Shown in pieces: positions 2,257 through 20,406 of a DNA stretch of 64,000 bases. Under the pieces are notes generated by a model. It did no database searches. It was not told the DNA's origin and saw only the letters and a list, made by a program, of their open reading frames with translations. The position numbers and the translations under genes were made by a program. How positions within the stretch are numbered: the first letter of the stretch is position 1; every line of letters starts with the position of its first letter. The DNA comes from Candidatus Micrarchaeota archaeon (GTDB lineage: Archaea; Micrarchaeota; Micrarchaeia; Anstonellales; Bilamarchaeaceae), in assembly GCA_040758595.1 (NCBI GenBank), contig JBFLVJ010000004.1, positions 3,896-67,895 of the forward strand, read 5' to 3'.

Positions 2257-2260
2257 GCCG

Positions 2261-4650: not shown

Positions 4651-4658
4651 GTGGCCGC

Positions 4659-5918: not shown

Positions 5919-7115
5919 TTTTCTGGCGAGGGCGGCTTTCAGCGCACCATCGATGCCTGCGCAAATATTTCTCCAGTCATATCCTTCCCGGACATGCTCA
6001 GCCATCGCAGATGATTTCTCCGCCAGGGCTTTCCTGTCAGCGATGGCTTCGGCGAGCCTCTTGGAGAGGCAGTCTGCATCATCGACCGGGCAGAGGTAGC
6101 CCAGCCTGCCGCCATCGGTTATCTCCCTGAACGATTGTATGTCCGAGCCGACCAGCACGGCGCCGAAAAGGCCCGCCTCCACTACCACCAGCCCGAAGCT
6201 CTCGTATCTTGATGGCATGGCCAGTATCTTTGCCTTGCGGTAATACTCATGCAGCGTCTCTTTTTCCACGAAACCCAGGTGGTTTATCCGCTTGGCAGCA
6301 TCAGGATGTGCCTTTAGGAACGCATCGAAGCTGGGCTTGAAGGATCCTTCCATCCCTCCGATGAGTGCGAGCCTCCAACATTCCGCCTCTTCGCATCCCG
6401 CGAAAGCGTCCAGCAGAATCTCGGTCGCCTTCTGATGGGTGCCTGTCCGCCCCACATGCAGGATGATACTTTCCTTGTCCTCGAAATCTACGTTCTTGGG
6501 CAGTATGGATGTTTCCACCCCGTTGGGGACGTAGATGAGTTTTTTCGCGACTTTTTTCAGCAGCGGATGCCTGGAGAAGAATGCGCACACCTCCTTGGAC
6601 TCGGCGCTTATGATGTCTATGGGCGAGAACCTGAGCAGAAGGTAGTAGCTGAGGATGCGCAGATCGGTCCTATCCGAGTTCTTTTCATAGTCATCGAGGA
6701 AAGCCGGGTCCTTGTCCCATTTGCAGTAGACGAGCCCTTTCCTGTTGAAAAGCTTGTAAACAAGGCCTACGATGTAGGTGTACCTGATGCTATAGGAATT
6801 CAGGATGTCTATCTCACTGGCCCGCCTGAACATGAAGGGGACGAGATCGAGCCCGATGAAAAAAGGATCCAGCTTCCCGAAGAGCCTGAAGAGCAGGCGG
6901 TTCTTCATGAGCGGGTTCTGTCCTATCTGCGACAGCTCAAGTTCCGGCGCGGCCTTTCGCGCCTCTTCCAGCAGTGCCGGATTCTCGTAGGATACGAATA
7001 TCGAGCGGTATCCGCGGTCTCGGGCGAGGATGCGGGGTATCATGCCCACGTCCTTGTGGAGGTGTATCGGGACGGAATACGGGAAGAAGGTCGCGAGCAC
7101 CGCCAATCCGGCCAC
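5913..7115 (-). CDS. Glycosyltransferase family 4 (GT-B, retaining)
   Basis: C-terminal GT4 signature …ILAMPSRYESFGLVVVEAGLFGAVLVGSD… (EX7E motif). Confidence 0.7.
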   Translation of the reverse strand: MAGLAVLATFFPYSVPIHLHKDVGMIPRILARDRGYRSIFVSYENPALLEEARKAAPELELSQIGQNPLMKNRLLFRLFGKLDPFFIGLDLVPFMFRRASEIDILNSYSIRYTYIVGLVYKLFNRKGLVYCKWDKDPAFLDDYEKNSDRTDLRILSYYLLLRFSPIDIISAESKEVCAFFSRHPLLKKVAKKLIYVPNGVETSILPKNVDFEDKESIILHVGRTGTHQKATEILLDAFAGCEEAECWRLALIGGMEGSFKPSFDAFLKAHPDAAKRINHLGFVEKETLHEYYRKAKILAMPSRYESFGLVVVEAGLFGAVLVGSDIQSFREITDGGRLGYLCPVDDADCLSKRLAEAIADRKALAEKSSAMAEHVREGYDWRNICAGIDGALKAALARKS

Positions 7116-7646
7116 CTACTTCTTCTTTGCGACCAGCTTCAGGTTCACGCCGCTAAGGTGCTTGGGGAGCAGGGGCAGCAGCACTGATTTCACTATCCTC
7201 AGGAACGCGCTTGGCGAGTCCTTCTGCATGAGGTAATCTATGCTCTCCACCTCGAAGCCGAACTTGTCGGCCCAGTTCCTCATGTGGAACGCAGTGTATA
7301 TCTCGAAGTGCCGATCCTCCTTTCCGTAGCCGCTGTAGTTGTGCAGGAAGAGCGTCTTGCCAAACCCGATGCCGAGATAGGCGGCATTGTCGGTGATGAG
7401 CGTGAGCCTGCCCCCTTTCTTGAGGACCCTGTTGGCCTCCTTCATCAGGTTGGCCGGATTCGTCAGATGCTCGAAGAGGTTCTTGGTATAGACCTCGTCG
7501 AAGGTGCCGTCATCGTAGGGCAGCCTGTCCTTGTCTATGTCGCACTGCTTGACATCGTCCTTCTGCGGATAGAGGTCTACGAAATCGGTCCCGATGGTGA
7601 AATCCTCTCCGCACCCTATGTTCAATACACGAGCCATAAGAATCAA
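7116..7646 (-). CDS. Class I SAM-dependent methyltransferase (Methyltransf_11-like)
   Basis: VLNIGCGED motif, …FDEVYTKNLFEHL… and LKKGGRL. Contiguous with the flanking GT4 genes on the same strand. Confidence 0.65.
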   Translation of the reverse strand: MILMARVLNIGCGEDFTIGTDFVDLYPQKDDVKQCDIDKDRLPYDDGTFDEVYTKNLFEHLTNPANLMKEANRVLKKGGRLTLITDNAAYLGIGFGKTLFLHNYSGYGKEDRHFEIYTAFHMRNWADKFGFEVESIDYLMQKDSPSAFLRIVKSVLLPLLPKHLSGVNLKLVAKKK

Positions 7647-7681
7647 ACCTCAACGCCGATGGGATAGTGCCGATGTAACAA

Positions 7682-8899
7682 TTAAAACCCGTCGCTTGCG
7701 CCTTCCTTGGCCTTTGCGACTTCTTGGAACGCGGCGCGCATCTTCTTGAAGAACATCTCCCAGGTGAAATTCTTGAGCACATGCTTCCGGCCTTCCCTGC
7801 CCATCTTCTCGTTCAAGTCAGGGTCAGCGGCCAGCTCCAGCATCCTCTGCGCCATCTTTTCCGTGGAATCCACCAGGAACCCTGTCTTGCCCTCCAGTAT
7901 GGTGTACTTCGGCCCGCCCTCGTCCACCGAGATGCAGGGTTTCTCGCTTGACATGGCCTCAAGAGGCACCAGGCCCCAGTCCTCCTTTATCGGACAGAAG
8001 AGGACGGCGTAGCACCTGGCATAGAGCGATTTGAGCTCTTCCTCTGGCAGGTCGGTCCTGAACTCGACATCCAGGCCCTTGGCCATCTCCATGAGGCCCT
8101 CGAAATATTTATGTTCCCGCTCCCGGTTGGGCACATGGCCAGCCAGAATCAGTTTCCAGTTTCCGGTTTCGGGTCTCGAGTTCCGCGAGCTGGGGTTCGC
8201 GTTCTTCATCTTGGCAGAGAACTTCCTGAACGCTTCGATGGCATACTCGAACCTCTTCTCGGGCACCACCCGTGAGGGGTAGAAGAAATACTTGTCATAG
8301 CCCTCGTTCCTGAACTCGTCTGCATGGACCCCTGGAGGGATGGGCTCCACCGGCTTCCCCACGTATTCGTCCAGGAACGCCTTGTCCCTGACATTGACAT
8401 ACGGGGAGACCGAGACCGTCTTCTCTATCTTCGGGTCTATCCTCCTCTCCCAGAACATGTACCAGCTGTGCATGGAGCGGGTGAGCATGCGCTTGTGGAA
8501 GGGGAGGGAGGCGACCTTCTGCGAATAGAGGTCGAAGGCGCTGCGCACCGGGCTGTAGAAATACCAGCACACCCGCTCGTTGCGGTTGCGTATCCAGTTG
8601 CCCGGTTTGGCATGGGCGTTTATCACGTCATAATCATCCTTCACCTTGTGGGTGAGGAATTCCATCCCGGCGACAGCCGAGGTATAAGCGTTGATGTCCT
8701 TGCGCAGGAAGAAGAATGGCTTCTCGAAAAGCGGCCGCTTGAGCACCCGCACGTCGAGCTCGGAGAACTCGGAGAATGCGCTGGTCTTGTCATAGAACGC
8801 GGTATATATGGGCGCGTCGAACTCCCTGGCCAGCTCCAATATGAGGCGGTCACCGCCCCCTTTCTGGAATATGGCCGGGTAGAATACCAGGACATCCAT
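7682..8899 (-). CDS. Glycosyltransferase family 4
   Basis: GT4 C-terminal domain (…FFYPSRVVPEKRFEYAIEAF…VLFCPIKEDWGLVPLEAMSSEKPCISVDEGGPKYTI…). Paralogous to the CDS at 18591-19742. Confidence 0.7.
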   Translation of the reverse strand: MDVLVFYPAIFQKGGGDRLILELAREFDAPIYTAFYDKTSAFSEFSELDVRVLKRPLFEKPFFFLRKDINAYTSAVAGMEFLTHKVKDDYDVINAHAKPGNWIRNRNERVCWYFYSPVRSAFDLYSQKVASLPFHKRMLTRSMHSWYMFWERRIDPKIEKTVSVSPYVNVRDKAFLDEYVGKPVEPIPPGVHADEFRNEGYDKYFFYPSRVVPEKRFEYAIEAFRKFSAKMKNANPSSRNSRPETGNWKLILAGHVPNREREHKYFEGLMEMAKGLDVEFRTDLPEEELKSLYARCYAVLFCPIKEDWGLVPLEAMSSEKPCISVDEGGPKYTILEGKTGFLVDSTEKMAQRMLELAADPDLNEKMGREGRKHVLKNFTWEMFFKKMRAAFQEVAKAKEGASDGF

Positions 8900-8965
8900 G
8901 CCATCTTCTCCAATAATTAGCTTTTAATGGAGTCCGGAACATCTTATATAGAGGAGGCGAAGCTT

Positions 8966-10081
8966 ATGGTCAAGCCATCGATCACTATCGGAAAGGACAC
9001 GATTTCTGAGGATTCAGCATGCTATGTGATAGCTGAGATAGGGCACAACCACCAGGGCAGCATGGACCTGGCCAAGAAGATGGTTGACGCGGCCGCGCAG
9101 GCCGGGGCCAACGCGGTCAAGCTGCAGAAGCGCTCCAACAAGGATCTCTTCACGGCCGAGATGTATGCAAAGCCCTACGAGAACGAGAACAGCTTCGGGA
9201 AGACATATGGCGAGCACCGCGAGGCCCTGGAGTTCGGCGAGGAGCAATACAAGGAGCTCAAGGCATATGCGGACTCAAAGGGCGTGACGTTCTTCGCGAC
9301 GCCGTTCGACATCCCGAGTGCGGACTTCCTGGAGAACGTAGGCGTGCCTGCCTACAAGATAGCCTCGGCGATGGTCACCGACATCCCGCTGATAGAGCAC
9401 GTCGCCAAGAAGGGGAAGCCAATCCTCCTCTCCACTGGGACATGCACCCTGGAGGACGTGGATCGCGCCTACGAATGCATGAAAAGCCATGGCGTGCCCA
9501 TGTGCATCCTGCACTGCGTGGCGGCCTACCCTATGATGGATTACTCCGAAGCTAACCTCAGCGTCATCAGCGCACTCAAGGAGCGATACCCCGACGCGGT
9601 CATCGGCTTCTCGAGCCACGAGAGCGGCATCATGCTGCCCGTGGCTGCCTATATGCTGGGAGCCAGGGTGGTGGAGAAGCACTTCACATTGAACCGCGCC
9701 ATGAAGGGCACCGACCAGACGTTTTCGCTAGAGCCCCAGGGGCTCTCGAAGATGGTGCGAGACCTCAAGCGCATCCACCAAGCCCTGGGAGACGGCAACA
9801 AGATAGTCCAGCGCTCGGAGATGAGCGCGAAACAGAAACTGGGCAAGAGCATATTCGCCAGGACGCGCATCCCGAAAGGCACGATAGTGGCGCCCGAGAT
9901 GGTGATTTTCAAGAGCCCGGCCACAGGCCTTCCGCCCTACAAGGTGGACGACGTCCTCGGCCGGGAGGCGAAATCCGACATCCCGCCCGACACTCCGATA
10001 GACTACAGCCTTTTGGGCGATGAGAAGAAGCAGTCCTTCGGCAAGGTAGACTGGGGCGCGCTGCTGGGCGGGAAGTCCTAG
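8966..10081 (+). CDS. neuB: N-acylneuraminate-9-phosphate/nonulosonic acid synthase family (NeuB/PseI/LegI-like, C-terminal SAF domain)
   Basis: IAEIGHNHQGSMDLAKKMVDAAAQAGANAVKLQ is the NeuB TIM-barrel signature. C-terminal SAF-like region is present. GGAGG lies 8 nt upstream of ATG 8966. A longer ORF opens at 8927. Confidence 0.8.
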   Translation: MVKPSITIGKDTISEDSACYVIAEIGHNHQGSMDLAKKMVDAAAQAGANAVKLQKRSNKDLFTAEMYAKPYENENSFGKTYGEHREALEFGEEQYKELKAYADSKGVTFFATPFDIPSADFLENVGVPAYKIASAMVTDIPLIEHVAKKGKPILLSTGTCTLEDVDRAYECMKSHGVPMCILHCVAAYPMMDYSEANLSVISALKERYPDAVIGFSSHESGIMLPVAAYMLGARVVEKHFTLNRAMKGTDQTFSLEPQGLSKMVRDLKRIHQALGDGNKIVQRSEMSAKQKLGKSIFARTRIPKGTIVAPEMVIFKSPATGLPPYKVDDVLGREAKSDIPPDTPIDYSLLGDEKKQSFGKVDWGALLGGKS

Positions 10082-10119
10082 CAGCCTGGCTTCTTGCCGG
10101 CATCGGTTTTGGTGATTCT

Positions 10120-10908
10120 ATGAATGAGCTTTTCAACCTCAAGGACAAGGTCGCGCTCGTCACCGGAGGCTCAGGCATACTGGGCAGGGAGTTCGTGAAG
10201 ATTCTGCGCAGCGCCGGGGCGAAGGTGGCCGTGTTCGAACTGCAGGACGGGGAATCGGATGACGATTCAGTCAGATACTTCAAGGTGGACATCACCGACA
10301 AGAAGGCGATAACCGCCGCGCTCGAAGACATCAAGAAGGGGTGGGGCGTGCCCCATATCCTCGTCAATTCCGCAGCCATAGACGCCCCGCCCGACTACTC
10401 GAATCCGATAAAGAGCGGACTGCTCGAGAGCGACGAGGCCGAGAGGAGGTTCGACAAGGTGATGGAAGTGAACGTCAAGGGTACCCTGCTATGCTCCCAG
10501 ATAATCGGCAACGAGATGGCCAGGAGCGGGAGAGGCTCCATCATCAACATATCATCCATCTACGGAGAGGGCTCGCCAGACCAGCGCATCTACATCAAGA
10601 ATGACCCGTCGAAATCTTTCATCAAGCCCATCTCATACTGCGTCAGCAAGGGCGCGATACCGAACATGTCGAGATACCTAGCGGCTTACTGGGCCGGGAA
10701 GGGCGTGCGCGTCAACACCCTCACGTTCGGAGGGGTGTTCAACAACCAGGATTCCGAATTCGTGGAGAAATACTGCGCGAAGGTGCCGCTGGGCCGCATG
10801 GCGAGGAAGGACGAATACAACGGAGCCCTGCTGTTCCTGGCATCGGACGCCTCGTCCTACATGACCGGCTCGAACATGGTGATAGATGGAGGATATACTG
10901 CCTGGTGA
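10120..10908 (+). CDS. Short-chain dehydrogenase/reductase (SDR)
   Basis: ALVTGGSGILG cofactor motif. YxxxK is present (YCVSKGAI). NSAAI motif. Confidence 0.75.
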   Translation: MNELFNLKDKVALVTGGSGILGREFVKILRSAGAKVAVFELQDGESDDDSVRYFKVDITDKKAITAALEDIKKGWGVPHILVNSAAIDAPPDYSNPIKSGLLESDEAERRFDKVMEVNVKGTLLCSQIIGNEMARSGRGSIINISSIYGEGSPDQRIYIKNDPSKSFIKPISYCVSKGAIPNMSRYLAAYWAGKGVRVNTLTFGGVFNNQDSEFVEKYCAKVPLGRMARKDEYNGALLFLASDASSYMTGSNMVIDGGYTAW

Positions 10909-10923
10909 ATCGTCGGTGATATC

Positions 10924-12405
10924 ATGAAGAACTTCAGCAATCTCATAAACGGGGAATGGAAGTCCGCCGCTTCAGGCAAGACGTTCGAGAACAGGAACCC
11001 GTCCGATACGGGCGAGGTGCTGGGAGCATTCCCGCGCTCTGGAAAGGAGGACATCGACGCAGCGGTCAAGGCAGCGAAGGAAGCATTCCCAGGATGGTCG
11101 AAGACGACACCTCCTGCCCGGGGCAGGATGCTCCTCGAGATAGCCCGCAAGATGGAAGAGCGCAAGGAGGAGCTGGCGAAGATAATTATGAAGGAAGTGG
11201 GCAAGACCATGAAGGAATGCCTGGGCGAGGTGTGCGCGGGCATCGACATGTGCAATTTCATGGCTGGCGAGGGCCGGGGCGATTTCGGCCAGGTGACCTA
11301 TTCAGAGCTGCCCGACCGCATAGCCATGACCAAGCGCTACCCCATCGGGGTGTGCGGCATCATACTCCCCTGGAACTTCCCCATCTCGCTGGTGAGCTGG
11401 AAGGTGTTCCCGGCCATATTGTGCGGCAACAGCGTCGTGGTAAAGCCAGCCGAGGACGCGCCCGAGAGCGTGAGCAAGTTCGGCGAGATACTGCTCGAGG
11501 CAGGCCTGCCCAAGGGAGTGGTGAATATCGTGAATGGCTTCGGCCACGAGGCCGGAGAGGCGCTGGTGAACCACCCCGGCGTCTCCATGATATCGTTCAC
11601 CGGCTCGAGTGAAGTGGGCCGAAAGATAGCGGCCACCTGCGGGCAGAGGCTCGCCAAGGTATCGCTGGAGCTGGGTGGCAAGAACGCGGCTATCGTGATG
11701 GATGACTCTGACCTGGACCTTGCGGTGGACTGCGTGCGCAGGGGCGCGTTCAGCGTCGCCGGCGAGAGATGCACCGCGACAAGCCGCGCGATTGTCCACA
11801 AGGACGTCCATGACGAGTTCGTGAAAAGGCTGCTCGAGGGCGCGAAGAAGATGAAGGTCGGCCCGGGCCACAACGAGGACACCGAAATCTGTCCCATCAT
11901 AAACCAGAAGCAGCTCGATAACGTCCTCTCCTATGTGGAGATCGGAAAGAAAGAAGGCGCCACCCTGCTGCTCGGGGGAGGACGCCTTGCGGGCGGGGAC
12001 CATGACAAGGGATTCTACACGGGTCCGACCATATTCACCGATGTCAAGCCCGAGATGAGGATAGCCCGGGAGGAGATATTCGGCCCGGTGCTGGTCGTCC
12101 TGAAGGCCGATTCGTTCGATGACGCCATCAGGATACACAACGATTCGGATTACGGCCTGTCGGCTGCAGTGTTCACGAAGGACATGGCCCGCTCGCTCAG
12201 CGCGGTCGACCGGATGGAGGCCGGCGTGTGCTATGCGAACGGACCGACGTTCGGTTCCGAGGTGCACCTGCCCTTCGGCGGCGTGAAGAAATCAGGCAAC
12301 GGCCACCGGGAAGTCGGCAAGGCCGCGCTCGAGATATTCTCGGAATACAAGACCATCTATCTCGACTACAGCGGAGGGGTGCAGAATGCACAATACAAGA
12401 AATGA
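10924..12405 (+). CDS. Aldehyde dehydrogenase family protein
   Basis: ALDH hallmarks: …WNFP…, ELGGKNAAIV (catalytic Glu region), …GERCTA… (catalytic Cys), and the EEIFGPV motif. Confidence 0.8.
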   Translation: MKNFSNLINGEWKSAASGKTFENRNPSDTGEVLGAFPRSGKEDIDAAVKAAKEAFPGWSKTTPPARGRMLLEIARKMEERKEELAKIIMKEVGKTMKECLGEVCAGIDMCNFMAGEGRGDFGQVTYSELPDRIAMTKRYPIGVCGIILPWNFPISLVSWKVFPAILCGNSVVVKPAEDAPESVSKFGEILLEAGLPKGVVNIVNGFGHEAGEALVNHPGVSMISFTGSSEVGRKIAATCGQRLAKVSLELGGKNAAIVMDDSDLDLAVDCVRRGAFSVAGERCTATSRAIVHKDVHDEFVKRLLEGAKKMKVGPGHNEDTEICPIINQKQLDNVLSYVEIGKKEGATLLLGGGRLAGGDHDKGFYTGPTIFTDVKPEMRIAREEIFGPVLVVLKADSFDDAIRIHNDSDYGLSAAVFTKDMARSLSAVDRMEAGVCYANGPTFGSEVHLPFGGVKKSGNGHREVGKAALEIFSEYKTIYLDYSGGVQNAQYKK

Positions 12406-14308
12406 GCTGTTCTTCAGCAAGGCTGATTTCGATGCGGTGAAAGGCTCATCGCTCGAGCTGGCCGAGCGCCTCTCGATTGTCGCTGACATGATAAGGTTCA
12501 ACACTCTGGCCACTATAGCATATGCCGGCTCGGGCCACATCGGAACCTCGCTTAGCGCCGCAGACCTGTTCACCCTCCTCTATCATCACCTCATGCGTTA
12601 TGATCCTCAGCACCCCCACAAGCACGGGAGGGACATCTTCATCTTATCGAAAGGACACGCATCGCCAGGCCTCTATGCGACCTTGGCTTCCGCTGGTTTC
12701 ATGGAAGCCGAAAAGCTCAAGGGATTCAGGAAGCTGGACGGCCTCCAGGGCCATGTGGATGTCTCGGTGCCGGGCATCGACGCGAACACAGGCTCGTTGG
12801 GGATGGGTATCTCCAAGGGGAAAGGCCATGCATGGGCCTACAAATCAGAGAAGAACGGCGGCAGGGCCTATGTCATGGTCGGCGACGGAGAGCTCCAGGA
12901 AGGGCAGAACTGGGAGGCGTTGCAGTCCGCCGGGCACATGAAGCTCGACAATCTTTACCTCATAATAGACAGGAACATGGTCCAGACCGACCGGAAGGTC
13001 AGCGAGATATCAGACATCGAGCCGTTGGACCGCAAGCTCGAGGATTTCGGCTGGGACGTGGTGCGGACCGACGGCAACGACATCGGAAAGCTTCTCGAAG
13101 CGTTCACGAAACTCGAAACCCAGAACCCGAAACCAGGACAAGAGCCGGGACCCAAGGCGCTGATAGCCGACACCAAGAAAGGCCGGGGCGTCTTCTTCAT
13201 GTGCTGCGATTCGCCCGACGCCTTCCGCGACGGCCTCTACAGATGGCATGGCGGCTTTTCGAATGATGAGGATCGGAAGAGGGCGTTCGACGAACTCGGC
13301 TCCCGCCTAGAGCCAAAGCTAGCCCCGCTCGGCATCTCCATCCCGACATATATCGCTCCCGCTCCAACTCCATCCACATTCAAAGGCTCCTCGCTCAAGC
13401 CCGCTTTCTCGAATTCCCTCCTTAAGCTGGCGGAGAAGCACAAGGAGATGGTGGTCATGGACGCCGACCTCGGAGAGGATTGCGGCCTGCTCCCTTTCGA
13501 GAGGCAGCATCCCGACCGCTTCATCCAGGTCGGCATCGCAGAGCAGGACATGGTCTCCATGGCCGGCGGCCTGGCGAAGGCAGGCAGGCTCCCGATAGTG
13601 AACACCTACACCGCGTTCCTCAGCTCACGCTCCAACGAGCAGATATTCAACAACTGCTCGGAGAAGGACAAAGTCATCTATGTCGGCCACTTGGCAGGGC
13701 TCCTACCCGCCAAGCCGGGCAAATCCCACCAGGGCATCCGGGACATCTCGCTGCTCCGCTCGATCCCGAATCTCACGCTCTGCCAACCTTGCACCGGTGC
13801 AGAGCTCGAAGCCATCATGGAGCTGCTCGCGGATTCCCACGGGAGCGCATACATGCGCCTGGAGCACGTACCGCCAAGAGAGGACGTCCAGCTCCCTGAA
13901 GATTACGAGGTCGCCACCGGCAAGGGAGCGGTCCTCTGCGAAGGGAAAGACGCGGCCATCATCAGCCACGGGGCGGTGATGGTCTCAGAATCCGTCCTCG
14001 CCAGCGAGGTGCTTGAGAAGGAAGGGATATCCGTCATGGTCATAGACCTCCCCTGGCTCAATCACATCGACAAGGAATGGCTCCAGAAAGCGCTCGAAGG
14101 CATCAAGCACGTCTTCTGCGTGGAGAACCATTCAGCCATCGGAGGCCAGGCCGAAGAGGTGGCAAGGCGCATCTCTGATGATTGCAGCCTGAACGTCATC
14201 GGTGTGGAGGGCTGGCCCCAGTCCGGAGACAATGGTGATGTGCTGGGGCGCTATGCGCTCGACCACGCATCCATCGCGAAAAAAATCAAAGAGGTGCTAG
14301 GGAGATGA
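12386..14308 (+). CDS. Transketolase-family protein (fused N-terminal TPP-binding and C-terminal pyrimidine/transketolase-C domains)
   Basis: GHIGTSLSAADL…LSKGHASPGLYA…GSLGMGISKGKG…VMVGDGELQEG are TPP-binding motifs. The C-terminal half resembles transketolase central and C domains. It overlaps the ALDH 3' end by 20 nt. Confidence 0.7.
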   Translation: MHNTRNELFFSKADFDAVKGSSLELAERLSIVADMIRFNTLATIAYAGSGHIGTSLSAADLFTLLYHHLMRYDPQHPHKHGRDIFILSKGHASPGLYATLASAGFMEAEKLKGFRKLDGLQGHVDVSVPGIDANTGSLGMGISKGKGHAWAYKSEKNGGRAYVMVGDGELQEGQNWEALQSAGHMKLDNLYLIIDRNMVQTDRKVSEISDIEPLDRKLEDFGWDVVRTDGNDIGKLLEAFTKLETQNPKPGQEPGPKALIADTKKGRGVFFMCCDSPDAFRDGLYRWHGGFSNDEDRKRAFDELGSRLEPKLAPLGISIPTYIAPAPTPSTFKGSSLKPAFSNSLLKLAEKHKEMVVMDADLGEDCGLLPFERQHPDRFIQVGIAEQDMVSMAGGLAKAGRLPIVNTYTAFLSSRSNEQIFNNCSEKDKVIYVGHLAGLLPAKPGKSHQGIRDISLLRSIPNLTLCQPCTGAELEAIMELLADSHGSAYMRLEHVPPREDVQLPEDYEVATGKGAVLCEGKDAAIISHGAVMVSESVLASEVLEKEGISVMVIDLPWLNHIDKEWLQKALEGIKHVFCVENHSAIGGQAEEVARRISDDCSLNVIGVEGWPQSGDNGDVLGRYALDHASIAKKIKEVLGR

Positions 14309-15012
14309 AGGTGCTCGCGCTCATCCTCGCCCGCGGCGGCTCGGAAAGAATCCCGAAAAAGAACATCGCCATGCTGGGCGGCCACCCGCTCATCCACTAC
14401 ACCATCGAAGCCGCGAAAAAATCCAAACACATAAACCGCATCATCGTCTCCACGGACAGCCAGGAGATAGCTGACGTGGCGAAGAGGCTCGGCGCAGAGG
14501 TCCCGTTCCTCCGGCCCGCGGAGATCTCCAAGTCGGATTCCACCGAGCTCCAGGCGTTCGAGCACGCTCTGGGCTATCTGAAGGACGAGGAAGGATACGA
14601 GCCGGACATAATCGTCAAGCCGTTCCCCACCTCCCCGTTCCGCACTACCAAGACCATAGACAGAGCGATCGAGATGCTCATCGCCCACCCGGAGGCGGAT
14701 TCGGTCCGCTCGGTGCGGCTCTGCAAGGAGCATCCCTACAAGATGTGGAGGATAGAAGGGGGCGAGCTGAAGCATCTGATTCCAGAAGACCAGAAGCCGG
14801 ACCAGGCGCACACGCTTTCATACCAGGTGCTGCCCGAGGTCTATGTCAACAACGCCAGCATCGACGTCACTAAACCCTCAACTGTCTTCGGCAAGAAATC
14901 GATCACCGGGTCAAAGATACTCGCCCTGGTCATGGACGAGCTGGAATCGCACGACATCAACACGCCGCTGGACCTGCTCTTGGCAGAGCGTCTCCTGAAG
15001 GGGCGCCGCTGA
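14305..15012 (+). CDS. neuA: Acylneuraminate (nonulosonic/ulosonic acid) cytidylyltransferase, CMP-NeuAc/CMP-Kdo synthetase family
   Basis: N-terminal ALILARGGSERIPKKN motif is diagnostic of the NeuA/KdsB/PseF family. Overlaps the transketolase stop by 4 nt. Confidence 0.75.
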   Translation: MKVLALILARGGSERIPKKNIAMLGGHPLIHYTIEAAKKSKHINRIIVSTDSQEIADVAKRLGAEVPFLRPAEISKSDSTELQAFEHALGYLKDEEGYEPDIIVKPFPTSPFRTTKTIDRAIEMLIAHPEADSVRSVRLCKEHPYKMWRIEGGELKHLIPEDQKPDQAHTLSYQVLPEVYVNNASIDVTKPSTVFGKKSITGSKILALVMDELESHDINTPLDLLLAERLLKGRR

Positions 15013-15025
15013 CAATCCGCTCTGA

Positions 15026-15868
15026 TCACTTCTTTTTCCAGGCGTAGGTCGTCAGGTGCGCGGGGTAGGCGGTCTCGAATCCGTAGCCCATCTTAGGGAA
15101 CAACTCCTCGAGAGCAAATTTCGTGTATCTCCCGTCCACGATGTGGTTGGATGCTATCGCCAGGTGCACGTCGTTCTCCGCCAGCACCTTCACAGCGCCC
15201 TTCACGGTCTCTATCTCTGCGCCTTCGATGTCCATCTTGATGAAGTCCACATGTCCGAGCCCGAGCTCTTCCGCTTCCTCGTCTATGGTCACGATGGGGA
15301 CCTCTATGACGTCCTTGGCCTCCTTCGCATCCGGTATTATCGGGCTGTCCTTCTTGTCCACGAAAAGCGTCGAGGTGCCAAGGCCCTTGTTATCGAACTT
15401 CATGCTGCCCCTTGAGCTCCAGGTGGCCTTGTTGAGGAGTGCCACATTCTTGAGGCCGTTCATCTCAACATTGCGCTTGAGGCGTTCATAGTTGAGCGGG
15501 TCCGGCTCGTACGCTATCACCTTGCCCCTCTCTCCTACCAGCTTTGCTGCATACAGCGTGAACACGCCGATGTACGCTCCACAGTCTATCACCACGTCGC
15601 CTTCCCTGAGCTCGTACCTGCCCAGATCGCCATCGGTCATGTGCGGTATCCTGCTCCAGAACTCCTCGAGCATCCAGGAATCCTTGGCTATCCTCATGGA
15701 CAGACCGCCATTGAACCTGTACTCGAAATAATCCTTGCCTTCCACGATATCGAAACCGATGCCCTTGCTCTTGTTGTAGTGCCTGTACACCTTCACCTTC
15801 AGCGGCGCCGGCAGATAGCTAGATAGCCTGAAATACAGGGCAGATTCCATCTTCTTCTTGATGTCCAT
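15026..15868 (-). CDS. FkbM-family methyltransferase
   Basis: …DVVIDCGAYIGVFTLYAAKLVGERGKVIAYEPDPLNYERLKRNVEMNGL… and HVDFIKMDIEGAE are characteristic of FkbM MTases. Confidence 0.65.
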   Translation of the reverse strand: MDIKKKMESALYFRLSSYLPAPLKVKVYRHYNKSKGIGFDIVEGKDYFEYRFNGGLSMRIAKDSWMLEEFWSRIPHMTDGDLGRYELREGDVVIDCGAYIGVFTLYAAKLVGERGKVIAYEPDPLNYERLKRNVEMNGLKNVALLNKATWSSRGSMKFDNKGLGTSTLFVDKKDSPIIPDAKEAKDVIEVPIVTIDEEAEELGLGHVDFIKMDIEGAEIETVKGAVKVLAENDVHLAIASNHIVDGRYTKFALEELFPKMGYGFETAYPAHLTTYAWKKK

Positions 15869-15879
15869 ATAAGCACCTC

Positions 15880-17238
15880 CTAATCTTTCCGGCCGCTAGC
15901 GCTCCATCTAAGGACGTCCTTTATCTCGCCGGCCAGCCTCCCTTCGTCATCCAACGGGATTATGTTCTTCGCATATTCCTTCAGGAAATCCGCGTAAGCC
16001 TCTCCATCTACTTTATACTCGCCATCCTTAATGGCCATCAGTACCCTAGGCAGCCTGTTGAGGTCCTTGACGTCTATCCCGACGTCCTTGTATGCCTCGT
16101 GGCCGAGCACCACCAGCGGCTTCTCCATCAATAGGGCCTCGTAGCCCACCGTGGAGTTTATCGCTATCACCCCAATGGAGTCCCGGATTAGCTCGCTCGT
16201 GTTCTCCTCCGGGTGTATCAGCCGCACCCGCTTCTCCCTCTTCAAATCAAGCACCGTGCCGAGCCCCTGATCGGCGTTTCTCCAGTGCGGGTGCACCTTC
16301 ACATAAATATATGTGCCTTGGGGCAGGCACTTGGCCATCTGCTTCGCGGTCCCCAGCTGGTCCAGGAAATACTCGCGGTAGGCTATCTGGGCCTCCCACT
16401 CGTAGTGGATGGAGAAAAGGAAATACCTCTCGCCCTTCCTTGGTCGGTCGAAGAAGATGGAATGCAATCTTGGATAGATGAGGTGCTTCGCGCTCCTATC
16501 CAGGAGCCGCCAGTACTTCTGGGGCAGGTCAGGGACGTCAGCGTCCATCTTGGCCCCGCCCTTGAGGACCACCGATATCTTGTGCGGTATGAACGGCACC
16601 TTCTTCATCATGTTGCCGAGCTTGTTGCCTGACTTGCTGTCGAGCTTGACTATCTCCTTCTTCTCGGTGGTCCTTGACCTGAACTCCTCCAGCACCCCAT
16701 CGTCGCTCTCCCTGTAGTATATTGGCATGTTGTCCTTGTCCCAGAAGATGAGGCTCTCCTTGAGCAGCCTGCCGTTTATGGGTTTCACGTTCTTCACGCC
16801 CATGCGCTCGGCAACGAGCTCTGCGGTGTTGATGAATAGCAAGCAGTCCATGAAATTGAACAGCACGTCCGCGCCCTGGAATATCTCCTTCCAGGCGAGC
16901 ACGTACCTGGCCAGTTTCTCCCTGAGGTCCTTCTTGCACAGCCAACCCCACCTTCTTTTGGTGGATGCTGCCAGGTAGTCGAAAGGGACTCCGAGGAACG
17001 CCTCGGCCTCTTCTATATCGTTCTCGGATAACTCTCTTGAGAACGCACGGGAGGAGAAGAAATCGCGGTACCTGAGGTCCAGGCCGGTCATATCCCTGAA
17101 CGTATTCTCAGGGATGCGGCCGATGACTTCAACGTCGAAATCATCTTTGAGGCGCGTGAGGGCCGACATCACCTTCTGGTGCCTCGGGTGTATGGAATCC
17201 ACTGTGACGTCCTGCGGATACAGGACCTTCACCGACAA
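15880..17238 (-). CDS. Capsule-polysaccharide-biosynthesis (KpsS/KpsC/LpsZ-like) family protein, putative ulosonic-acid transferase
   Basis: Overall resemblance to the Capsule_synth family (…KVHPHWRN…NSTVGYEALLMEKPLVVLG…). The family assignment is from memory and not verified. Confidence 0.45.
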   Translation of the reverse strand: MSVKVLYPQDVTVDSIHPRHQKVMSALTRLKDDFDVEVIGRIPENTFRDMTGLDLRYRDFFSSRAFSRELSENDIEEAEAFLGVPFDYLAASTKRRWGWLCKKDLREKLARYVLAWKEIFQGADVLFNFMDCLLFINTAELVAERMGVKNVKPINGRLLKESLIFWDKDNMPIYYRESDDGVLEEFRSRTTEKKEIVKLDSKSGNKLGNMMKKVPFIPHKISVVLKGGAKMDADVPDLPQKYWRLLDRSAKHLIYPRLHSIFFDRPRKGERYFLFSIHYEWEAQIAYREYFLDQLGTAKQMAKCLPQGTYIYVKVHPHWRNADQGLGTVLDLKREKRVRLIHPEENTSELIRDSIGVIAINSTVGYEALLMEKPLVVLGHEAYKDVGIDVKDLNRLPRVLMAIKDGEYKVDGEAYADFLKEYAKNIIPLDDEGRLAGEIKDVLRWSASGRKD

Positions 17239-17396
17239 CCTCCCCTCTGCTATCCAAATCCCTCCTCTGCCTCCAAAGAGCGCTATATGCTTAATCCCGA
17301 ACCTTCCTTTTAAACCTTTTTCAGAGGGCGGACACCGCTCTCCACACCGTCGCTTTTTAGTATTATCGCGCGAAATCAGGAATAGAGCTGATTGTT

Positions 17397-18554
17397 ATGG
17401 ATCCGATTCCTGTCGAGCAGGTAGTGCAGAAGGACAAGCTTGGGCCGTTGAAATCCGCGGGCCATCTCATCGATATAGAAGCCATGGACGAATACGAGAA
17501 ATCCATCAGGGAGAGCAAGAGCGCAGTGCCCGGCCCTTCGTTCTGGAAGGGGAGGCGCGTCCTCATCACCGGTTCGGCCGGCATGGTAGGCAGCACCATG
17601 ATAGATCTGCTCATCTCCATGGACGCCAAGGTGGCGGGCACCGTCAAGCGCCACGCGCTTCCGGACTACCCGAACGTCATGCACAACGTGGACAGCGGCA
17701 AGTTGCACCTCTACGAAGTGGATCTGACCGACTACAACCGGGTTGCCTCCCTCATCAAGGAGTTCGAGCCCGAATTCATATTCCACCAGGCTGCCGAATC
17801 GTTCGTGCCGACCTCGCTCCAGCAGCCGAGCCATGTGGTCGAGAACAACTGCGTGAGCACCACCAACCTGCTGGAAGCGGCCACCAAGGAGGACAAGAGC
17901 CTCAAAGGGATACAGCTGGCATGCTCTTCCGAGCAGTACGGTTTCGTCAAGGACGCATCAGAGCTTCCGGTGCGCGAGGAGAACGAGCTGCGACCCACTT
18001 CGACCTACGCATCCACCAAGGTGTTCACCGAGTTCATCGGCAAGTCGTATTTCTACACATACAAGACCCCGACTGTCATCACCCGCTCCTTCAACCAGGA
18101 GGGCCCTAGGAGAGGCCCTCAGTTCTTCACCGCCAGGATAGGCCATCAGATGAAGGACATCCTCTCGGGCAAGTCAAACCGCATAGTGATGGGCAACCCG
18201 AACGCGGTGCGCGATTTCACCCACATCCACGATTCGGTCAAGGCCCAGCTGCTCGCGCTGGAGAAGTGCGAGCGCGGCCAGGCCTACAACATCTGCTCGG
18301 GCAAGGGCATCACCACCGGCGACTATGCGACGCTTGCCACCAGGGTCTGGGACGTCAAGGCGCCCATCTTCGTGGACAAGAGGCTCCTGCGGCCGTACGA
18401 GCGCGGGGAGGCCCTCTTCGACGGCTTCATCGGCGACAACCGGAAGTTCAGCGAGAAAACCGGCTGGAAGCCCACGCTTACCGTGACCGACATAATCCGG
18501 GACAGCGTGAAGTTCTATCAGGATCCCAAGGCATTCCCTGTGCTCAAGGCCTGA
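17397..18554 (+). CDS. NAD-dependent sugar-nucleotide 4,6-dehydratase (GDP-mannose 4,6-dehydratase-like)
   Basis: RVLITGSAGMVGS Rossmann motif, YASTK (YxxxK), and GMD-like …NPNAVRDFTHIHD… segment. N-terminal ~45-aa extension. Confidence 0.65.
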   Translation: MDPIPVEQVVQKDKLGPLKSAGHLIDIEAMDEYEKSIRESKSAVPGPSFWKGRRVLITGSAGMVGSTMIDLLISMDAKVAGTVKRHALPDYPNVMHNVDSGKLHLYEVDLTDYNRVASLIKEFEPEFIFHQAAESFVPTSLQQPSHVVENNCVSTTNLLEAATKEDKSLKGIQLACSSEQYGFVKDASELPVREENELRPTSTYASTKVFTEFIGKSYFYTYKTPTVITRSFNQEGPRRGPQFFTARIGHQMKDILSGKSNRIVMGNPNAVRDFTHIHDSVKAQLLALEKCERGQAYNICSGKGITTGDYATLATRVWDVKAPIFVDKRLLRPYERGEALFDGFIGDNRKFSEKTGWKPTLTVTDIIRDSVKFYQDPKAFPVLKA

Positions 18555-18590: not shown

Positions 18591-19742
18591 ATGCGCCTCG
18601 TGATAACCACCCCGTTCCTGGAGACGCGGGGCGGGATGGAGCGTGTCATCCTGCAGATCGCCCAGCGATTCGATGCGCGCATCCACTGCCTCAGCTACGA
18701 TGCGGACGACACGTTCCCCGAGTTCTCGAAGCTGGATGTGGAGGTCGCCAGGCCGACGTTCCTGCGCAGCCTGCCCTTCGGGAAGCGCGTCTCGACCGCC
18801 ATCGAGGCCGGCTATCATTTCTACAACACCGAGCTGGAGGACTACGATGTCATCAACGCCCACCAGACCCCGAGCGAGTGGATACGCAACCGCAACTCTC
18901 CGGTGATATGGTATTCGCATACGCCGAACCGAGAGGCCTTCGACCTCTATGAATGGCGGATGAAGCGCAGGAGCCTCCCGTCGAAAGCGGTCTTCTGGTC
19001 TTCTATCCAAGCATTCAAATTCTTCGAATACCGTACCGTCCCGAAGCTGGAGCACATATTCACGAACAGCCTGAACAGCCAGGCGCGCATCAAGAAGTAC
19101 CTCCATCGCGAATCAGAGGTCCTGCATCCGGGCGTCGATTCCGACAGGTTCTCATGCAAGGCCTACGAGGACTTCTTCTTCTATCCATCGCGCATCGCGC
19201 CCGAGAAGGAGATAGAGTACGCCATCGAGGCTTTCAAGATATTCAGGAACCGGGTGGACAACGTGAAACACGGAACCGGGAACTGGAAGCTCGTCATCGC
19301 AGGCGCGCTCTCGAAGCGCCCGGAGCATATCGCCTACTTCGACAGGCTGAAATCCATGTGCGACGATTCCATAGCCATCGAGACCAATGTGGGTGACTGG
19401 CAGCTGCGGGACCTCTACGCCCGCTGCCACGCGGTCCTCTACACCCCCGTGAACGAGGACTACGGCCTGGTCCCACTGGAGGCCATGGCATCATCCAAGC
19501 CGTGCATCGCCAGGAACGAGGGCGGTCCGAAGGAGACCATAATAGACGGGAGCGACGGCTTCCTCATCAACAGCATCTGGGAGATGGCCGGCAGGATGGA
19601 GAAGCTGGCCAAGGACCAGGAGCTCTGCGCATCCATGGGCAAGATTGGCAGGCGGAAAGTCAAGCGCGACTTCACTTGGGAGGCTTTCTTGAAGCGGTTT
19701 TCCGAGAAGGCTGAAGAGCTGATGTGTGCTTCTCCGCGCTAG
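18591..19742 (+). CDS. Glycosyltransferase family 4
   Basis: Clear paralog of 7682-8899 (…FFYPSRIAPEKEIEYAIEAF…VLYTPVNEDYGLVPLEAMASSKPCIARNEGGPKETI…). Confidence 0.7.
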   Translation: MRLVITTPFLETRGGMERVILQIAQRFDARIHCLSYDADDTFPEFSKLDVEVARPTFLRSLPFGKRVSTAIEAGYHFYNTELEDYDVINAHQTPSEWIRNRNSPVIWYSHTPNREAFDLYEWRMKRRSLPSKAVFWSSIQAFKFFEYRTVPKLEHIFTNSLNSQARIKKYLHRESEVLHPGVDSDRFSCKAYEDFFFYPSRIAPEKEIEYAIEAFKIFRNRVDNVKHGTGNWKLVIAGALSKRPEHIAYFDRLKSMCDDSIAIETNVGDWQLRDLYARCHAVLYTPVNEDYGLVPLEAMASSKPCIARNEGGPKETIIDGSDGFLINSIWEMAGRMEKLAKDQELCASMGKIGRRKVKRDFTWEAFLKRFSEKAEELMCASPR

Positions 19743-20406
19743 CCCTCTCCTTATCTTCTATCCTTATCTTGGCCTTCTCGATGGCCTCCTCTCTTTCCTC
19801 CTTCTCCGCTTCCTCCTCGATTTCGCTGGGTCCCTGGTCAGCCAGTCCGATGATGCTTATGAGGAATTTGAGCAGCGTCCCTACGATCAGTATCAGCACA
19901 AGAAAGGCAACGCCGGCCAGCGCGGTCAGGTGATCGGGCGGGACGTCCGCGTACACAAGGGTCATGATGACATAGACAGTGACGTTGATGGGCGGAGCGG
20001 AGAAGATGAAGAACGCGAAACCCTTGGGAAGCAGGTGGAAGTACGTCATGTACATCAGCAGGAAGCTGGCGCCGGCGAGGCCGAGGGACAGCGTGAAATA
20101 GAGCTCGTTCGACATCACGCTCTCCCAGGAGCCGCCGTAGTTGTACATGGTCCTGATTATGTTTATGGCGACGAACAGGAACACCATGGTGTTGCCGAAG
20201 GCGGTGTTCCAGCCCAGCTCCTCCTTCCGGTTCCTGCCGAAATAGAGCGTCATGAACAGGGTCGCGATAAGGAGAGGTATCGCGGTCCAGAGCATATCCT
20301 GGTTGTTCAACGGGGCGAGCAGGAGCTCTATCAGGCGTCCCTGCACCGCATACGCCAATCCCATGGCTTCGGTCTCAAGGCTCATGCTCCATAAACAGCC
20401 GAGCAT
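19672..20406 (-). CDS. Hypothetical polytopic membrane protein with charged C-terminal tail
   Basis: At least five hydrophobic helices followed by a Glu/Lys-rich tail. Converges on and overlaps the GT4 3' end by 71 nt. No recognisable family. Confidence 0.45.
   Translation of the reverse strand: MLGCLWSMSLETEAMGLAYAVQGRLIELLLAPLNNQDMLWTAIPLLIATLFMTLYFGRNRKEELGWNTAFGNTMVFLFVAINIIRTMYNYGGSWESVMSNELYFTLSLGLAGASFLLMYMTYFHLLPKGFAFFIFSAPPINVTVYVIMTLVYADVPPDHLTALAGVAFLVLILIVGTLLKFLISIIGLADQGPSEIEEEAEKEEREEAIEKAKIRIEDKERASAEKHTSALQPSRKTASRKPPK

Follow-up and report, generated by a model that had tools for sequence, protein, structure and literature searches.

A 64,000-nucleotide stretch of the genome of a Candidatus Micrarchaeota archaeon (hereafter the window; positions 3896-67895 of contig C4 in an assembly of 1.23 Mb, 24 contigs and 93.65% completeness) carries a five-gene operon at positions 8966-15012 of its plus strand. 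The operon encodes a NeuB-family synthase, a short-chain dehydrogenase/reductase (SDR), an aldehyde dehydrogenase (ALDH), a fused transketolase-like enzyme of the thiamine diphosphate (ThDP) type (hereafter TK) and a predicted CMP-ulosonate synthetase (hereafter CMP-transferase). We are confident that these genes specify a dedicated CMP-ulosonate pathway with tailoring after the condensation step, and that such a pathway is undescribed in the searchable literature. The publications that we searched on transketolase in connection with nonulosonic or ulosonic acids, NeuB or 2-keto-3-deoxynononic acid (Kdn), and on the biosynthesis of ulosaric or heptulosaric acids, do not describe it.

For a fuller version of this reading we hold the chances to be even, namely that the operon is a self-contained, horizontally acquired unit making a CMP-activated, tail-modified ulosonic acid for a cell-surface glycan, with the SDR, TK and ALDH acting after NeuB. 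Judging from gene content and conserved residues, it is probably an ulosonic-acid pathway of the Kdn type to which a chain-editing module has been added. Genes were called from open reading frames (ORFs) and from Pfam and NCBIfam profile scans of the window proteins; L, G and P numbers are working labels for the compared loci, genomes and database proteins.

Five co-linear genes with conserved overlaps

The first gene (8966-10081) encodes a phosphoenolpyruvate (PEP)-condensing ulosonate synthase of the NeuB family with 371 residues (PF03102, 269 bits). Its longest ORF begins at 8927, and the start at 8966 matches the gene as called in the public database. A spacer of 38 nt (10082-10119), occupied in the closest relatives by a KdsC/YrbI-type phosphatase gene, separates it from the gene of a classical SDR oxidoreductase of 262 residues (10120-10908; adh_short_C2, 135 bits), which is followed after 15 nt by that of an NAD(P)-dependent ALDH of 493 residues (10924-12405; PF00171, 577 bits). 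The gene of the TK, a short-form enzyme of 640 residues (12386-14308; Transketolase_N, Transket_pyr and Transketolase_C), overlaps the ALDH gene by 20 nt (12386-12405), and the gene of the NeuA/PseF-like CMP-transferase, of 235 residues (14305-15012; CTP_transf_3, 97.7 bits), overlaps the TK gene by 4 nt (ATGA, 14305-14308). The co-linearity of SDR, ALDH and TK on one strand, next to the NeuB and CMP-transferase genes, and both overlaps had been reported in a preliminary description of this DNA, and we recovered them at exactly these positions.

An overlap of 20 nt at this junction of ALDH and TK is kept in all archaeal-type cassettes (loci L007, L123, L124 and L125 at 10001-10020). This conservation suggests translational coupling. 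In Thermosulfuriphilus ammonigenes, a 24-nt gap between ALDH and TK takes the place of the overlap. Inspection of the sequences revealed intact catalytic motifs in all five operon enzymes.

The cassette recurs in archaea and bacteria

Identity to the TK is 43-61% among its 120 best database homologues, and the nearest named homologues of the operon genes come from 'Candidatus Micrarchaeia archaeon'. We surveyed synteny at 80 loci of species-representative genomes (genome_contigs) that gave a TK alignment. At 14 of the 80, the TK gene has homologues of the window NeuB, SDR, ALDH and CMP-transferase genes no more than a few kb away. These 14 loci belong to at least nine bacterial phyla (Thermodesulfobacteriota, 'delta proteobacterium', Acidobacteriota, Melainabacteria, Gammaproteobacteria, Bacteroidota, Chloroflexota, Verrucomicrobiota, Actinomycetota, Myxococcota). 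The TKs at these 14 loci are at least about 39% identical to the window TK, except those of L033 (35%) and L076 (34%). Apart from these two, such neighbours are absent around TK relatives below about 38% identity, which come from Bacillota, most Bacteroidota and others. As many unrelated genomes have this gene set around their closest homologues of the TK, the arrangement goes far beyond chance.

The gene content of individual cassettes varies around a common theme. The metagenome-assembled genome (MAG) of a member of the Micrarchaeia (L007) carries NeuB, a KdsC-like phosphatase, SDR, ALDH, TK, CMP-transferase and three Capsule_synth genes; the three closest contigs (L123-L125) carry NeuB, phosphatase, SDR, ALDH and TK; and a bacterial contig of 2.76 Mb (L011) carries NeuB, phosphatase, SDR, ALDH, CMP-transferase and TK. 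Two Hadarchaeales MAGs (L009 and L010) have NeuB, SDR, TK and CMP-transferase without ALDH. The cultured T. ammonigenes (L126; CP048877.1), on which the papers found deal with sulfur metabolism only, has NeuB, SDR, ALDH, TK, CMP-transferase and a Capsule_synth gene in the same order as the window, the phosphatase being likewise absent. The preliminary description had proposed a non-canonical ulosonic-acid pathway that includes the SDR, ALDH and TK, and had made it depend on their co-conservation with neuB and the CMP-transferase gene in related genomes. Co-conservation was found in Micrarchaeia, Hadarchaeales and bacteria, that is, across two domains of life, and this part of the proposal stands.

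The trees of TK and NeuB match in their groupings (L012 with L018, L024 with L027, L019 with L025, and the archaeal-type group), and therefore the cassette travels as a unit. Within the phylum, no other genome among the 301 sampled has a cassette-type TK or NeuB. The others have split or distant TKs with 30-37% full-length identity to the window TK, the N-terminal subunit alone reaching up to 48%. We rejected an ancestral presence of the cassette in Micrarchaeota for the 301 genomes searched, among which there is a single carrier, and by these comparisons of sequence the operon is a lateral acquisition in this lineage. The closest relative of the window cassette is L124 (GCA_964647575.1), with identities of 78% for NeuB, 68% for SDR, 64% for ALDH, 60% for TK and 72% for the CMP-transferase; the similarity extends to the flanking genes of an FkbM-family methyltransferase (64%), a Capsule_synth protein (50%) and a dehydratase-like protein (66%).

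Two further observations concern the distribution of the cassette. Two IMG/VR contigs filed as viral (L143:2225-6479 and L144:310-3653) carry partial cassettes with NeuB, SDR, CMP-transferase and TK and no ALDH, their TKs being 37-38% identical to the window TK. In L009 (10867-14452), the ALDH-less Hadarchaeales cassette adjoins genes for a GmhA-like isomerase, a GmhB-like phosphatase, a transaldolase/fructose-6-phosphate aldolase, a nucleotidyltransferase and an epimerase; these neighbours form either a heptose pathway or a source of an unusual aldose phosphate for the NeuB of L009.

The synthase lies outside the described equivalogs and the genome lacks the canonical genes

The window NeuB belongs to the NeuB family, as it matches the full PF03102 profile (positions 1-241), followed by a SAF domain (39 bits). 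It scores below the cut-offs of both relevant NCBIfam equivalogs, with 309.5 bits against 399.65 on NeuB_NnaB (TIGR03569) and 263.2 bits against 340.25 on PseI (TIGR03586). The other cassette NeuBs behave in the same way on NeuB_NnaB (301-350 bits). NeuB homologues also occur in 30 other genomes of the 301 sampled from the phylum, all of them at most 39% identical to the window NeuB. Six of these non-cassette NeuBs were scanned and each passes one of the two cut-offs: L132-L134 pass NeuB_NnaB with 444-471 bits, and L136, L138 and L140 pass PseI with 341-483 bits. In the NeuB tree, a branch with 100/98 support splits 21 cassette NeuBs from those of other Micrarchaeota, and the window NeuB pairs with that of L124. 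This placement uses the NCBIfam equivalog cut-offs, together with the non-cassette Micrarchaeota NeuBs as stand-ins for characterised synthases. By its profile scores, the window NeuB is neither a NeuB/LegI-type nor a PseI-type equivalog.

We then considered the whole assembly. No DegT-type sugar aminotransferase was found in it, the best PF01041 match (21 bits) being a class-V aminotransferase, nor was a hydrolysing 2-epimerase, the best Epimerase_2 (PF02350) match reaching 17 bits, below the cut-off. The preliminary description had seen neither gene in the island, and the absence of both extends to the entire assembly. Likewise, the assembly holds no NanE above cut-off and no type-II phosphomannose isomerase was found; two phosphoglucomutase/phosphomannomutase genes are present. 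A second 'NeuB' match in the genome proved to be a 3-deoxy-D-arabino-heptulosonate 7-phosphate (DAHP) synthase adjoining a 3-dehydroquinate synthase, so that there is no second NeuB. A canonical nonulosonic pathway elsewhere in the genome was ruled out, as the DAHP synthase and the class-V aminotransferase explain the stray matches. A close grouping of the synthase with LegI or PseI, backed by a canonical pathway elsewhere, had been named as a counterargument in the preliminary description; the profile scores and the tree point the other way.

These results bear on the alternative of an ordinary locus for sialic, legionaminic or pseudaminic acid, with the three enzymes SDR, ALDH and TK encoded beside it for unrelated metabolic purposes. 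Those pathways do use the same NeuB and CMP-transferase families. However, the NeuB fails both equivalog cut-offs, one or the other of which other Micrarchaeota NeuBs pass, the genome has no aminotransferase or 2-epimerase of the required kind and has a housekeeping transketolase elsewhere, and the neighbours are co-inherited across domains, so that synteny already contradicts this explanation, which we consider extremely improbable.

The transketolase has a rebuilt substrate pocket

The TK has all three transketolase domains (PF00456, PF02779 and PF02780). We mapped it onto human transketolase (PDB 3OOY, E = 2.5e-75). The residues for ThDP binding and catalysis (H51, H91, H123, D167, N197, H288, E386 and H448) are kept and are invariant in the clade; on the NCBIfam model NF004559, the protein scores 423.4 bits, below the cut-off of 488. 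The substrate pocket has changed. Human Arg318, Ser345, His416 and Arg474, which we take from published human, yeast and E. coli transketolase structures to form the sugar-phosphate clamp, correspond to K338, D365, L436 and H494 in the window TK. Asp424 (Asp477 in yeast), the stereochemical reader of the substrate hydroxyl in the same structures, corresponds to P444.

These replacements characterise the whole group. In the 15 cassette TKs that we compared, Arg, His and Asp are gone from these five positions, and Ser is kept at the S345 position in a single protein. Among 60 other fused TKs, four of the five positions are kept in 55-58, and at the S345 position 40 proteins have Ser and 19 have Ala. 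The 120 best database homologues, too, are without Arg and His at these positions; 34 of them have Ser at the S345 position and 119 share Pro444. In the TK tree, 17 of the 18 cassette-linked TKs fall within one clade of 22 (SH-aLRT 100), a long branch parts this clade from 61 other fused TKs, and the window TK groups with copies from Micrarchaeia and Hadarchaeales. As its residues indicate, the TK should be a working ThDP ketol-transfer catalyst whose predicted substrate is something other than an ordinary sugar phosphate.

A separate, split housekeeping transketolase with a stronger Pfam score adjoins a transaldolase homologue on contig C12. The island TK was therefore rejected as the housekeeping enzyme of the cell and is an extra, dedicated paralogue.

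Relatives of the TK also occur outside cassettes. Four clade TKs from Ignavibacteriota (L013, L016, L023 and L026) carry the same pocket changes and have no NeuB, SDR, ALDH or CMP-transferase within 10 kb; either their partners are encoded elsewhere, or enzymes of this type also serve a second function. About ten other Micrarchaeota (G198:C7, G080:C8, G207:C63, G112:C1, G109:C7 and others) have uninterrupted fused TK-like frames of 645-730 aa, about 35% identical to the window TK, beside or instead of the usual split transketolase.

Alternation of ALDH and aminotransferase argues for a late aldehyde

In two cassettes, L019 (Bacteroidota, 9181-15523) and L025 (Polyangiaceae, 4965-11881), there is no ALDH gene and a class-III aminotransferase gene lies next to TK and SDR. 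The best models for this protein are glutamate-1-semialdehyde aminomutase, GntE, LysJ and gamma-aminobutyrate transaminase, a class of enzymes that interconvert aldehydes and primary amines. We scanned metagenomes with the L019 TK as query (loci L223-L263; loci of at least 9 kb were counted, including a few duplicates). The sister order CMP-transferase, TK, aminotransferase, SDR, KdsC-like phosphatase and NeuB was found at 18 loci, whose TKs are 63-100% identical to that of L019 and none of which gave an ALDH match. Four more distant metagenome loci have the ALDH and no aminotransferase.

The presence of two alternative aldehyde-consuming enzymes in otherwise identical cassettes argues for an aldehyde intermediate. 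Since the invariant partners are NeuB, SDR, TK and CMP-transferase, this aldehyde should come from the chemistry of the SDR, of the TK or of both. The alternation fits an aldehyde that would be made late, on the finished acid, and the sister variant would by the same reasoning give an omega-amino sugar rather than a diacid sugar.

The SDR has the catalytic Ser and YCVSK motif and is 41-68% identical to the SDRs of other cassettes. Its nearest NCBIfam models are sugar-acid dehydrogenases, all scoring under their cut-offs (gluconate 5-dehydrogenase, 146 bits; PRK09186, 144 bits). Gluconate 5-dehydrogenase oxidises the (omega-1) carbon, and secondary alcohols are the usual substrates of classical SDRs of this sugar-acid type. 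The ALDH has Glu249 in its ELGGK motif and Cys283, and it is co-conserved in most cassettes. A likeness to alpha-ketoglutarate-semialdehyde dehydrogenase was dropped as a clue to its substrate; the PDB neighbours are generic ALDH1 and betaine-aldehyde enzymes with similar scores. The CMP-transferase has the N-terminal ARGGSxR/KxPxKN loop (ARGGSERIPKKN at residues 9-20), is 36-73% identical to its cassette homologues and has NeuA CMP-sialic acid synthetases as its closest solved structures; on the PseF equivalog it scores 140.6 bits, under the cut-off of 205.7.

An aldehyde could also arise by terminal oxidation without cleavage. The SDR and ALDH would then turn the terminal CH2OH into a carboxylate, and the product would be an ulosaric acid of nine carbons or, where the aminotransferase replaces the ALDH, an omega-amino acid. 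The TK would do something else, for example a two-carbon extension, a ketol exchange or a decoration. The alternation of ALDH and aminotransferase shows only that an aldehyde exists, not where it comes from; no acceptor can be named for a removed two-carbon (C2) unit; and KdnB and KdnA, described below, set a precedent for oxidation of the tail followed by transamination. However, this scheme leaves the TK without a role, although it occurs in all cassettes and the ALDH and aminotransferase are variable. Competition with the ALDH would also follow if the TK took that aldehyde as its acceptor. The preference of sugar-acid-type SDRs for secondary alcohols also speaks against it. We therefore regard terminal oxidation as unlikely.

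A KdsC-type phosphatase follows NeuB in relatives and is missing here

In L007, L123, L124 and L125, a Hydrolase_3 gene of 160-168 aa lies between NeuB and SDR. Its product passes the KdsC/YrbI model TIGR01670 (128 bits against a cut-off of 107) and scores 109 bits on the KDN-9-P phosphatase model. Such a phosphatase directly follows NeuB in most relatives, including many bacterial cassettes. A natural fusion is also on record, the 552-aa database protein P0190, which joins a cassette-type NeuB (55% identical) to a Hydrolase_3 KdsC-like phosphatase domain. As a phosphatase follows NeuB in relatives and NeuB-phosphatase fusions exist, the substrate of the NeuB should be a common omega-phosphorylated aldose.

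No KdsC-family phosphatase was found in the window or in the rest of the assembly, where the best TIGR01670 match reaches 18 bits. The DNA alignment between the window and L124 skips the phosphatase and resumes inside the SDR. T. ammonigenes and several MAGs also do without it and keep the gene order. Three readings of this gap are possible. An unrelated phosphatase may substitute, presumably in T. ammonigenes too, sugar phosphatases having been argued to be functionally redundant in the case of Kdn synthesis in Prymnesium (PMC6200933); the gene may lie within the unassembled ~6% of the genome; or the pathway may be impaired.

The last of these leads to the view that a transferred cassette, its phosphatase gone, has ceased to produce a finished sugar here. 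The phosphatase of all four closest relatives is missing, with none elsewhere in the assembly, and the genome is the sole cassette carrier among the 301 sampled from the phylum. Yet all genes are full-length, and their intact motifs and conserved overlaps disfavour decay. T. ammonigenes and several MAGs keep the same order without the phosphatase, whose function could be covered by redundant enzymes (PMC6200933) or by a gene in the unassembled part. Decay thus appears improbable to us.

The phosphatase linkage also bears on the order of the reactions. The preliminary description had suggested that a two-carbon transfer by the TK and an oxidation step build the sugar substrate of the NeuB. In such a scheme, the TK, SDR and ALDH would make an unusual aldose, which NeuB would condense with PEP to a novel 8- or 9-carbon acid. 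The translational coupling of the five co-linear genes is compatible with it, as are the lack of known precursor genes in the genome and that of a phosphatase in the window, which would be needless if the aldose were unphosphorylated. However, the products of transketolases are ketoses, which NeuB cannot use, and the core cassette has no isomerase. Relatives with a NeuB as close as 78% identity have the KdsC-type phosphatase after it, fusions of the two exist, and the TK has lost its phosphate site. Furthermore, an ALDH or aminotransferase acting on the aldose would destroy the very aldehyde that NeuB needs. Phosphatase linkage, lost phosphate site, ketose products and a late aldehyde all disfavour the order given in the preliminary description, and we see little prospect for it.

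A proposed pathway with tailoring after condensation

In the pathway that we propose instead, the NeuB homologue would join PEP to a hexose 6-phosphate in the manner of the Kdn-9-P route, a choice of substrate guided by the KdsC-type phosphatase of the relatives. The omega-phosphate would then be removed, by an assumed unspecific phosphatase, which would expose a free terminal diol. The SDR would oxidise the penultimate hydroxyl of the dephosphorylated acid and create a HOCH2-CO-CHOH tail, the donor motif of transketolases. Next, the TK would cut between the ketone carbon and the following carbon, taking off a C2 unit and leaving an aldehyde, which the ALDH would oxidise to a second carboxylate, rendering the step irreversible. 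A nine-carbon precursor would yield a 3-deoxy-hept-2-ulosaric acid, doubly acidic and with seven carbons (C7). Activation by the NeuA-like enzyme to a CMP derivative would be possible as the 2-keto-3-deoxy head stays untouched. The KpsC/KpsS-like protein encoded nearby would transfer the CMP-activated acid, and the FkbM enzyme may methylate. Under the rules of nomenclature, a Kdn precursor would lead to the L-arabino isomer, a stereoisomer of plant 3-deoxy-D-lyxo-hept-2-ulosaric acid (Dha). The 8- or 9-carbon product of the preliminary description accordingly gives way to a shortened, doubly acidic sugar, which we consider likelier.

Several observations weigh against this proposal. The SDR, ALDH and CMP-transferase all score under the equivalog cut-offs, so that their substrates are read from context; for the ALDH, generic ALDH1 and betaine-aldehyde enzymes are equally close. 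No acceptor can be named for the ThDP-bound C2 unit, the normal acceptor site apparently being gone, and the aldehyde could also come from oxidation of the terminal CH2OH by the SDR without cleavage. Five clade TKs (the four from Ignavibacteriota and that of the actinomycete L028) have no cassette within 10 kb, and the cassettes of L033, L252 and the Hadarchaeales L009 have neither ALDH nor aminotransferase. With the dedicated phosphatase missing here, the pathway may be impaired, or a free aldose may be the substrate of this NeuB. Lastly, the aldose, and with it chain length and stereochemistry, is putative; neither NanE nor a type-II phosphomannose isomerase was found.

In its most specific form, our proposal is tentative, somewhat short of an even chance: the operon could represent the first genetic route to an ulosaric acid, in which a descendant of transketolase would trim C2 from a finished sialic-type acid in a new kind of sugar tailoring, to yield a CMP-activated, Dha-like, doubly charged sugar for decoration of the host-contact surface of this DPANN archaeon, with a parallel branch that would transaminate the same aldehyde to an omega-amino acid.

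The operon lies in a surface-glycan island

According to the ORF and profile scans, the first 25 kb of the window form one surface-glycan island. Upstream of the operon, it contains a gene set for a CDP/dTDP-6-deoxyhexose (629-4650), followed by genes for glycosyltransferases of families 2 (GT2) and 4 (GT4) and for methyltransferases (4614-8899). In the nucleotidyltransferase gene at 629-1306, the first ATG-started ORF spans only positions 89-238 of the NTP_transferase profile; the nucleotide-binding N-terminus would need a non-standard start, or the gene is truncated.

Two genes on the minus strand follow the operon. The first encodes an FkbM-family S-adenosylmethionine-dependent methyltransferase of 280 aa (15026-15868; Methyltransf_21, 70.9 bits; TIGR01444, 113.6 bits), with 51-64% identity to proteins encoded next to the cassettes of L007 and L124. 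FkbM-type methyltransferases recur beside cassettes, and this one is probably an accessory enzyme that O-methylates the sugar or the glycan. The second encodes a Capsule_synth KpsC/KpsS-like protein of 452 aa (15880-17238), which exceeds the gathering cut-off of PF05159 (45.3 bits against 20), covers only profile positions 147-271 and reaches 22 bits against 600 on the KpsS equivalog. Its only PDB relatives are KpsC beta-Kdo transferases (E = 1.7e-6; Kdo, 2-keto-3-deoxyoctonic acid). Capsule_synth genes flank the cassette in L007 and L123-L127, with identities of 48-50% between the window protein and its counterparts in L007 and L124. Although its resemblance to KpsC is weak, this protein is the obvious candidate for transferring the CMP-activated acid. 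A KpsS-like transferase beside the pathway, as postulated in the preliminary description, does accompany the cassette.

Further downstream, on the plus strand, lies the gene of an extended-SDR protein of 385 aa resembling NDP-sugar dehydratases and epimerases (17397-18554; GDP_Man_Dehyd, 217 bits). It scores below every NCBIfam equivalog cut-off and is 57-66% identical to products of genes beside the L123 and L124 cassettes; it is probably an accessory protein for another sugar of the same glycan. The island continues with another GT4, an epimerase, a Wzx-type flippase and a processive GT2. Between the GT4 and epimerase genes, two ORFs without a Pfam match overlap on opposite strands (19672-20406, minus; 19726-20394, plus), the minus-strand one also overlapping the 3' end of the GT4 gene by 71 nt. 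Beyond the island, a proteasome alpha subunit with its N-terminal signature is encoded at 30454-31173, which identifies the DNA as archaeal.

Comparison with known systems

Kdo, Kdn and the sialic, legionaminic and pseudaminic acids are key determinants of cell surfaces. To our knowledge, all known routes to ulosonic acids differ only in how the aldose is made, and the cassette points to another principle, the editing of the carbon chain of a finished acid by a repurposed enzyme of central metabolism. It is widespread, its carriers including at least two lineages of archaea and bacteria of many phyla, and the cultured T. ammonigenes makes a direct test possible. The fact that a host-dependent archaeon with 1.23 Mb keeps a glycan island of ~25 kb with an acquired module suggests that the acidic sugar matters at the interface between symbiont and host.

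The canonical systems for N-acetylneuraminic acid (NeuBCA), legionaminic acid (LegBCHGIF) and pseudaminic acid (PseBCHGIF) share with the island a NeuB-family synthase, a CTP_transf_3 protein and a glycan context with a Wzx flippase and glycosyltransferases. Unlike them, the genome lacks the set of 4,6-dehydratase, aminotransferase, acetyltransferase and 2-epimerase, and its NeuB falls outside the equivalogs. Shewanella makes Kdo8N (8-amino-Kdo) by oxidation of Kdo at C8 to an aldehyde (KdnB), followed by transamination (KdnA). The resemblance lies in the tailoring of the tail of a 2-keto-3-deoxy acid after condensation by way of an aldehyde, with the aminotransferase variant of L019 and L025 as the analogous case. 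The differences lie in the SDR, which takes the place of a metal-dependent alcohol dehydrogenase, in the added ThDP enzyme and in the fate of the aldehyde, which in the window would be oxidised, not aminated.

With the short-form transketolases (human TKT, 3OOY, 3MOS and 4KXU; split Carboxydothermus enzyme, 6YAK), the TK shares the three domains, the length and the ThDP-binding and catalytic residues. In contrast, the clamp of Arg, Ser, His and Arg and the Asp are replaced (K/V, D, L/Y, H/I/S and P, respectively), and the enzyme is encoded in a glycan operon. KpsC and KpsS use a CMP-activated 2-keto-3-deoxy acid as donor. The Capsule_synth protein passes the Pfam model for these beta-Kdo transferases, but the likeness is very weak and only the C-terminal third aligns.

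In the Kdn-9-P route, PEP and mannose 6-phosphate give Kdn-9-P, which is converted to Kdn and then to CMP-Kdn, as in Bacteroides thetaiotaomicron (BT1714 synthase, Kdn-9-P phosphatase and CMP-Kdn synthetase), Prymnesium parvum and vertebrates (NANS, NANP and CMAS) (PMC6200933). Like this route, the cassette has a NeuB-family synthase, a NeuA-like CMP-transferase, a KdsC/YrbI-type phosphatase in the relatives and no genes for amino-sugar precursors. Unlike it, the cassette has an SDR, a TK-like enzyme and an ALDH or aminotransferase inserted between synthase and CMP-transferase. The dedicated phosphatase of the Kdn-9-P type is present in L007 and L123-L125 and absent from the window and from its own genome.

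The closest match in predicted product is Dha, a constituent of plant rhamnogalacturonan-II and of prasinophyte thecae whose biosynthesis and activated form are listed as unknown (PMC12168206, PMC3355719). The predicted product belongs to the same class, that of seven-carbon 2-keto-3-deoxy diacids, but a Kdn precursor would give the L-arabino and not the D-lyxo isomer. If the product is indeed a heptulosaric acid, the cassette would provide the first enzymatic precedent for a class of sugars of unknown biosynthesis even in plants (PMC12168206).

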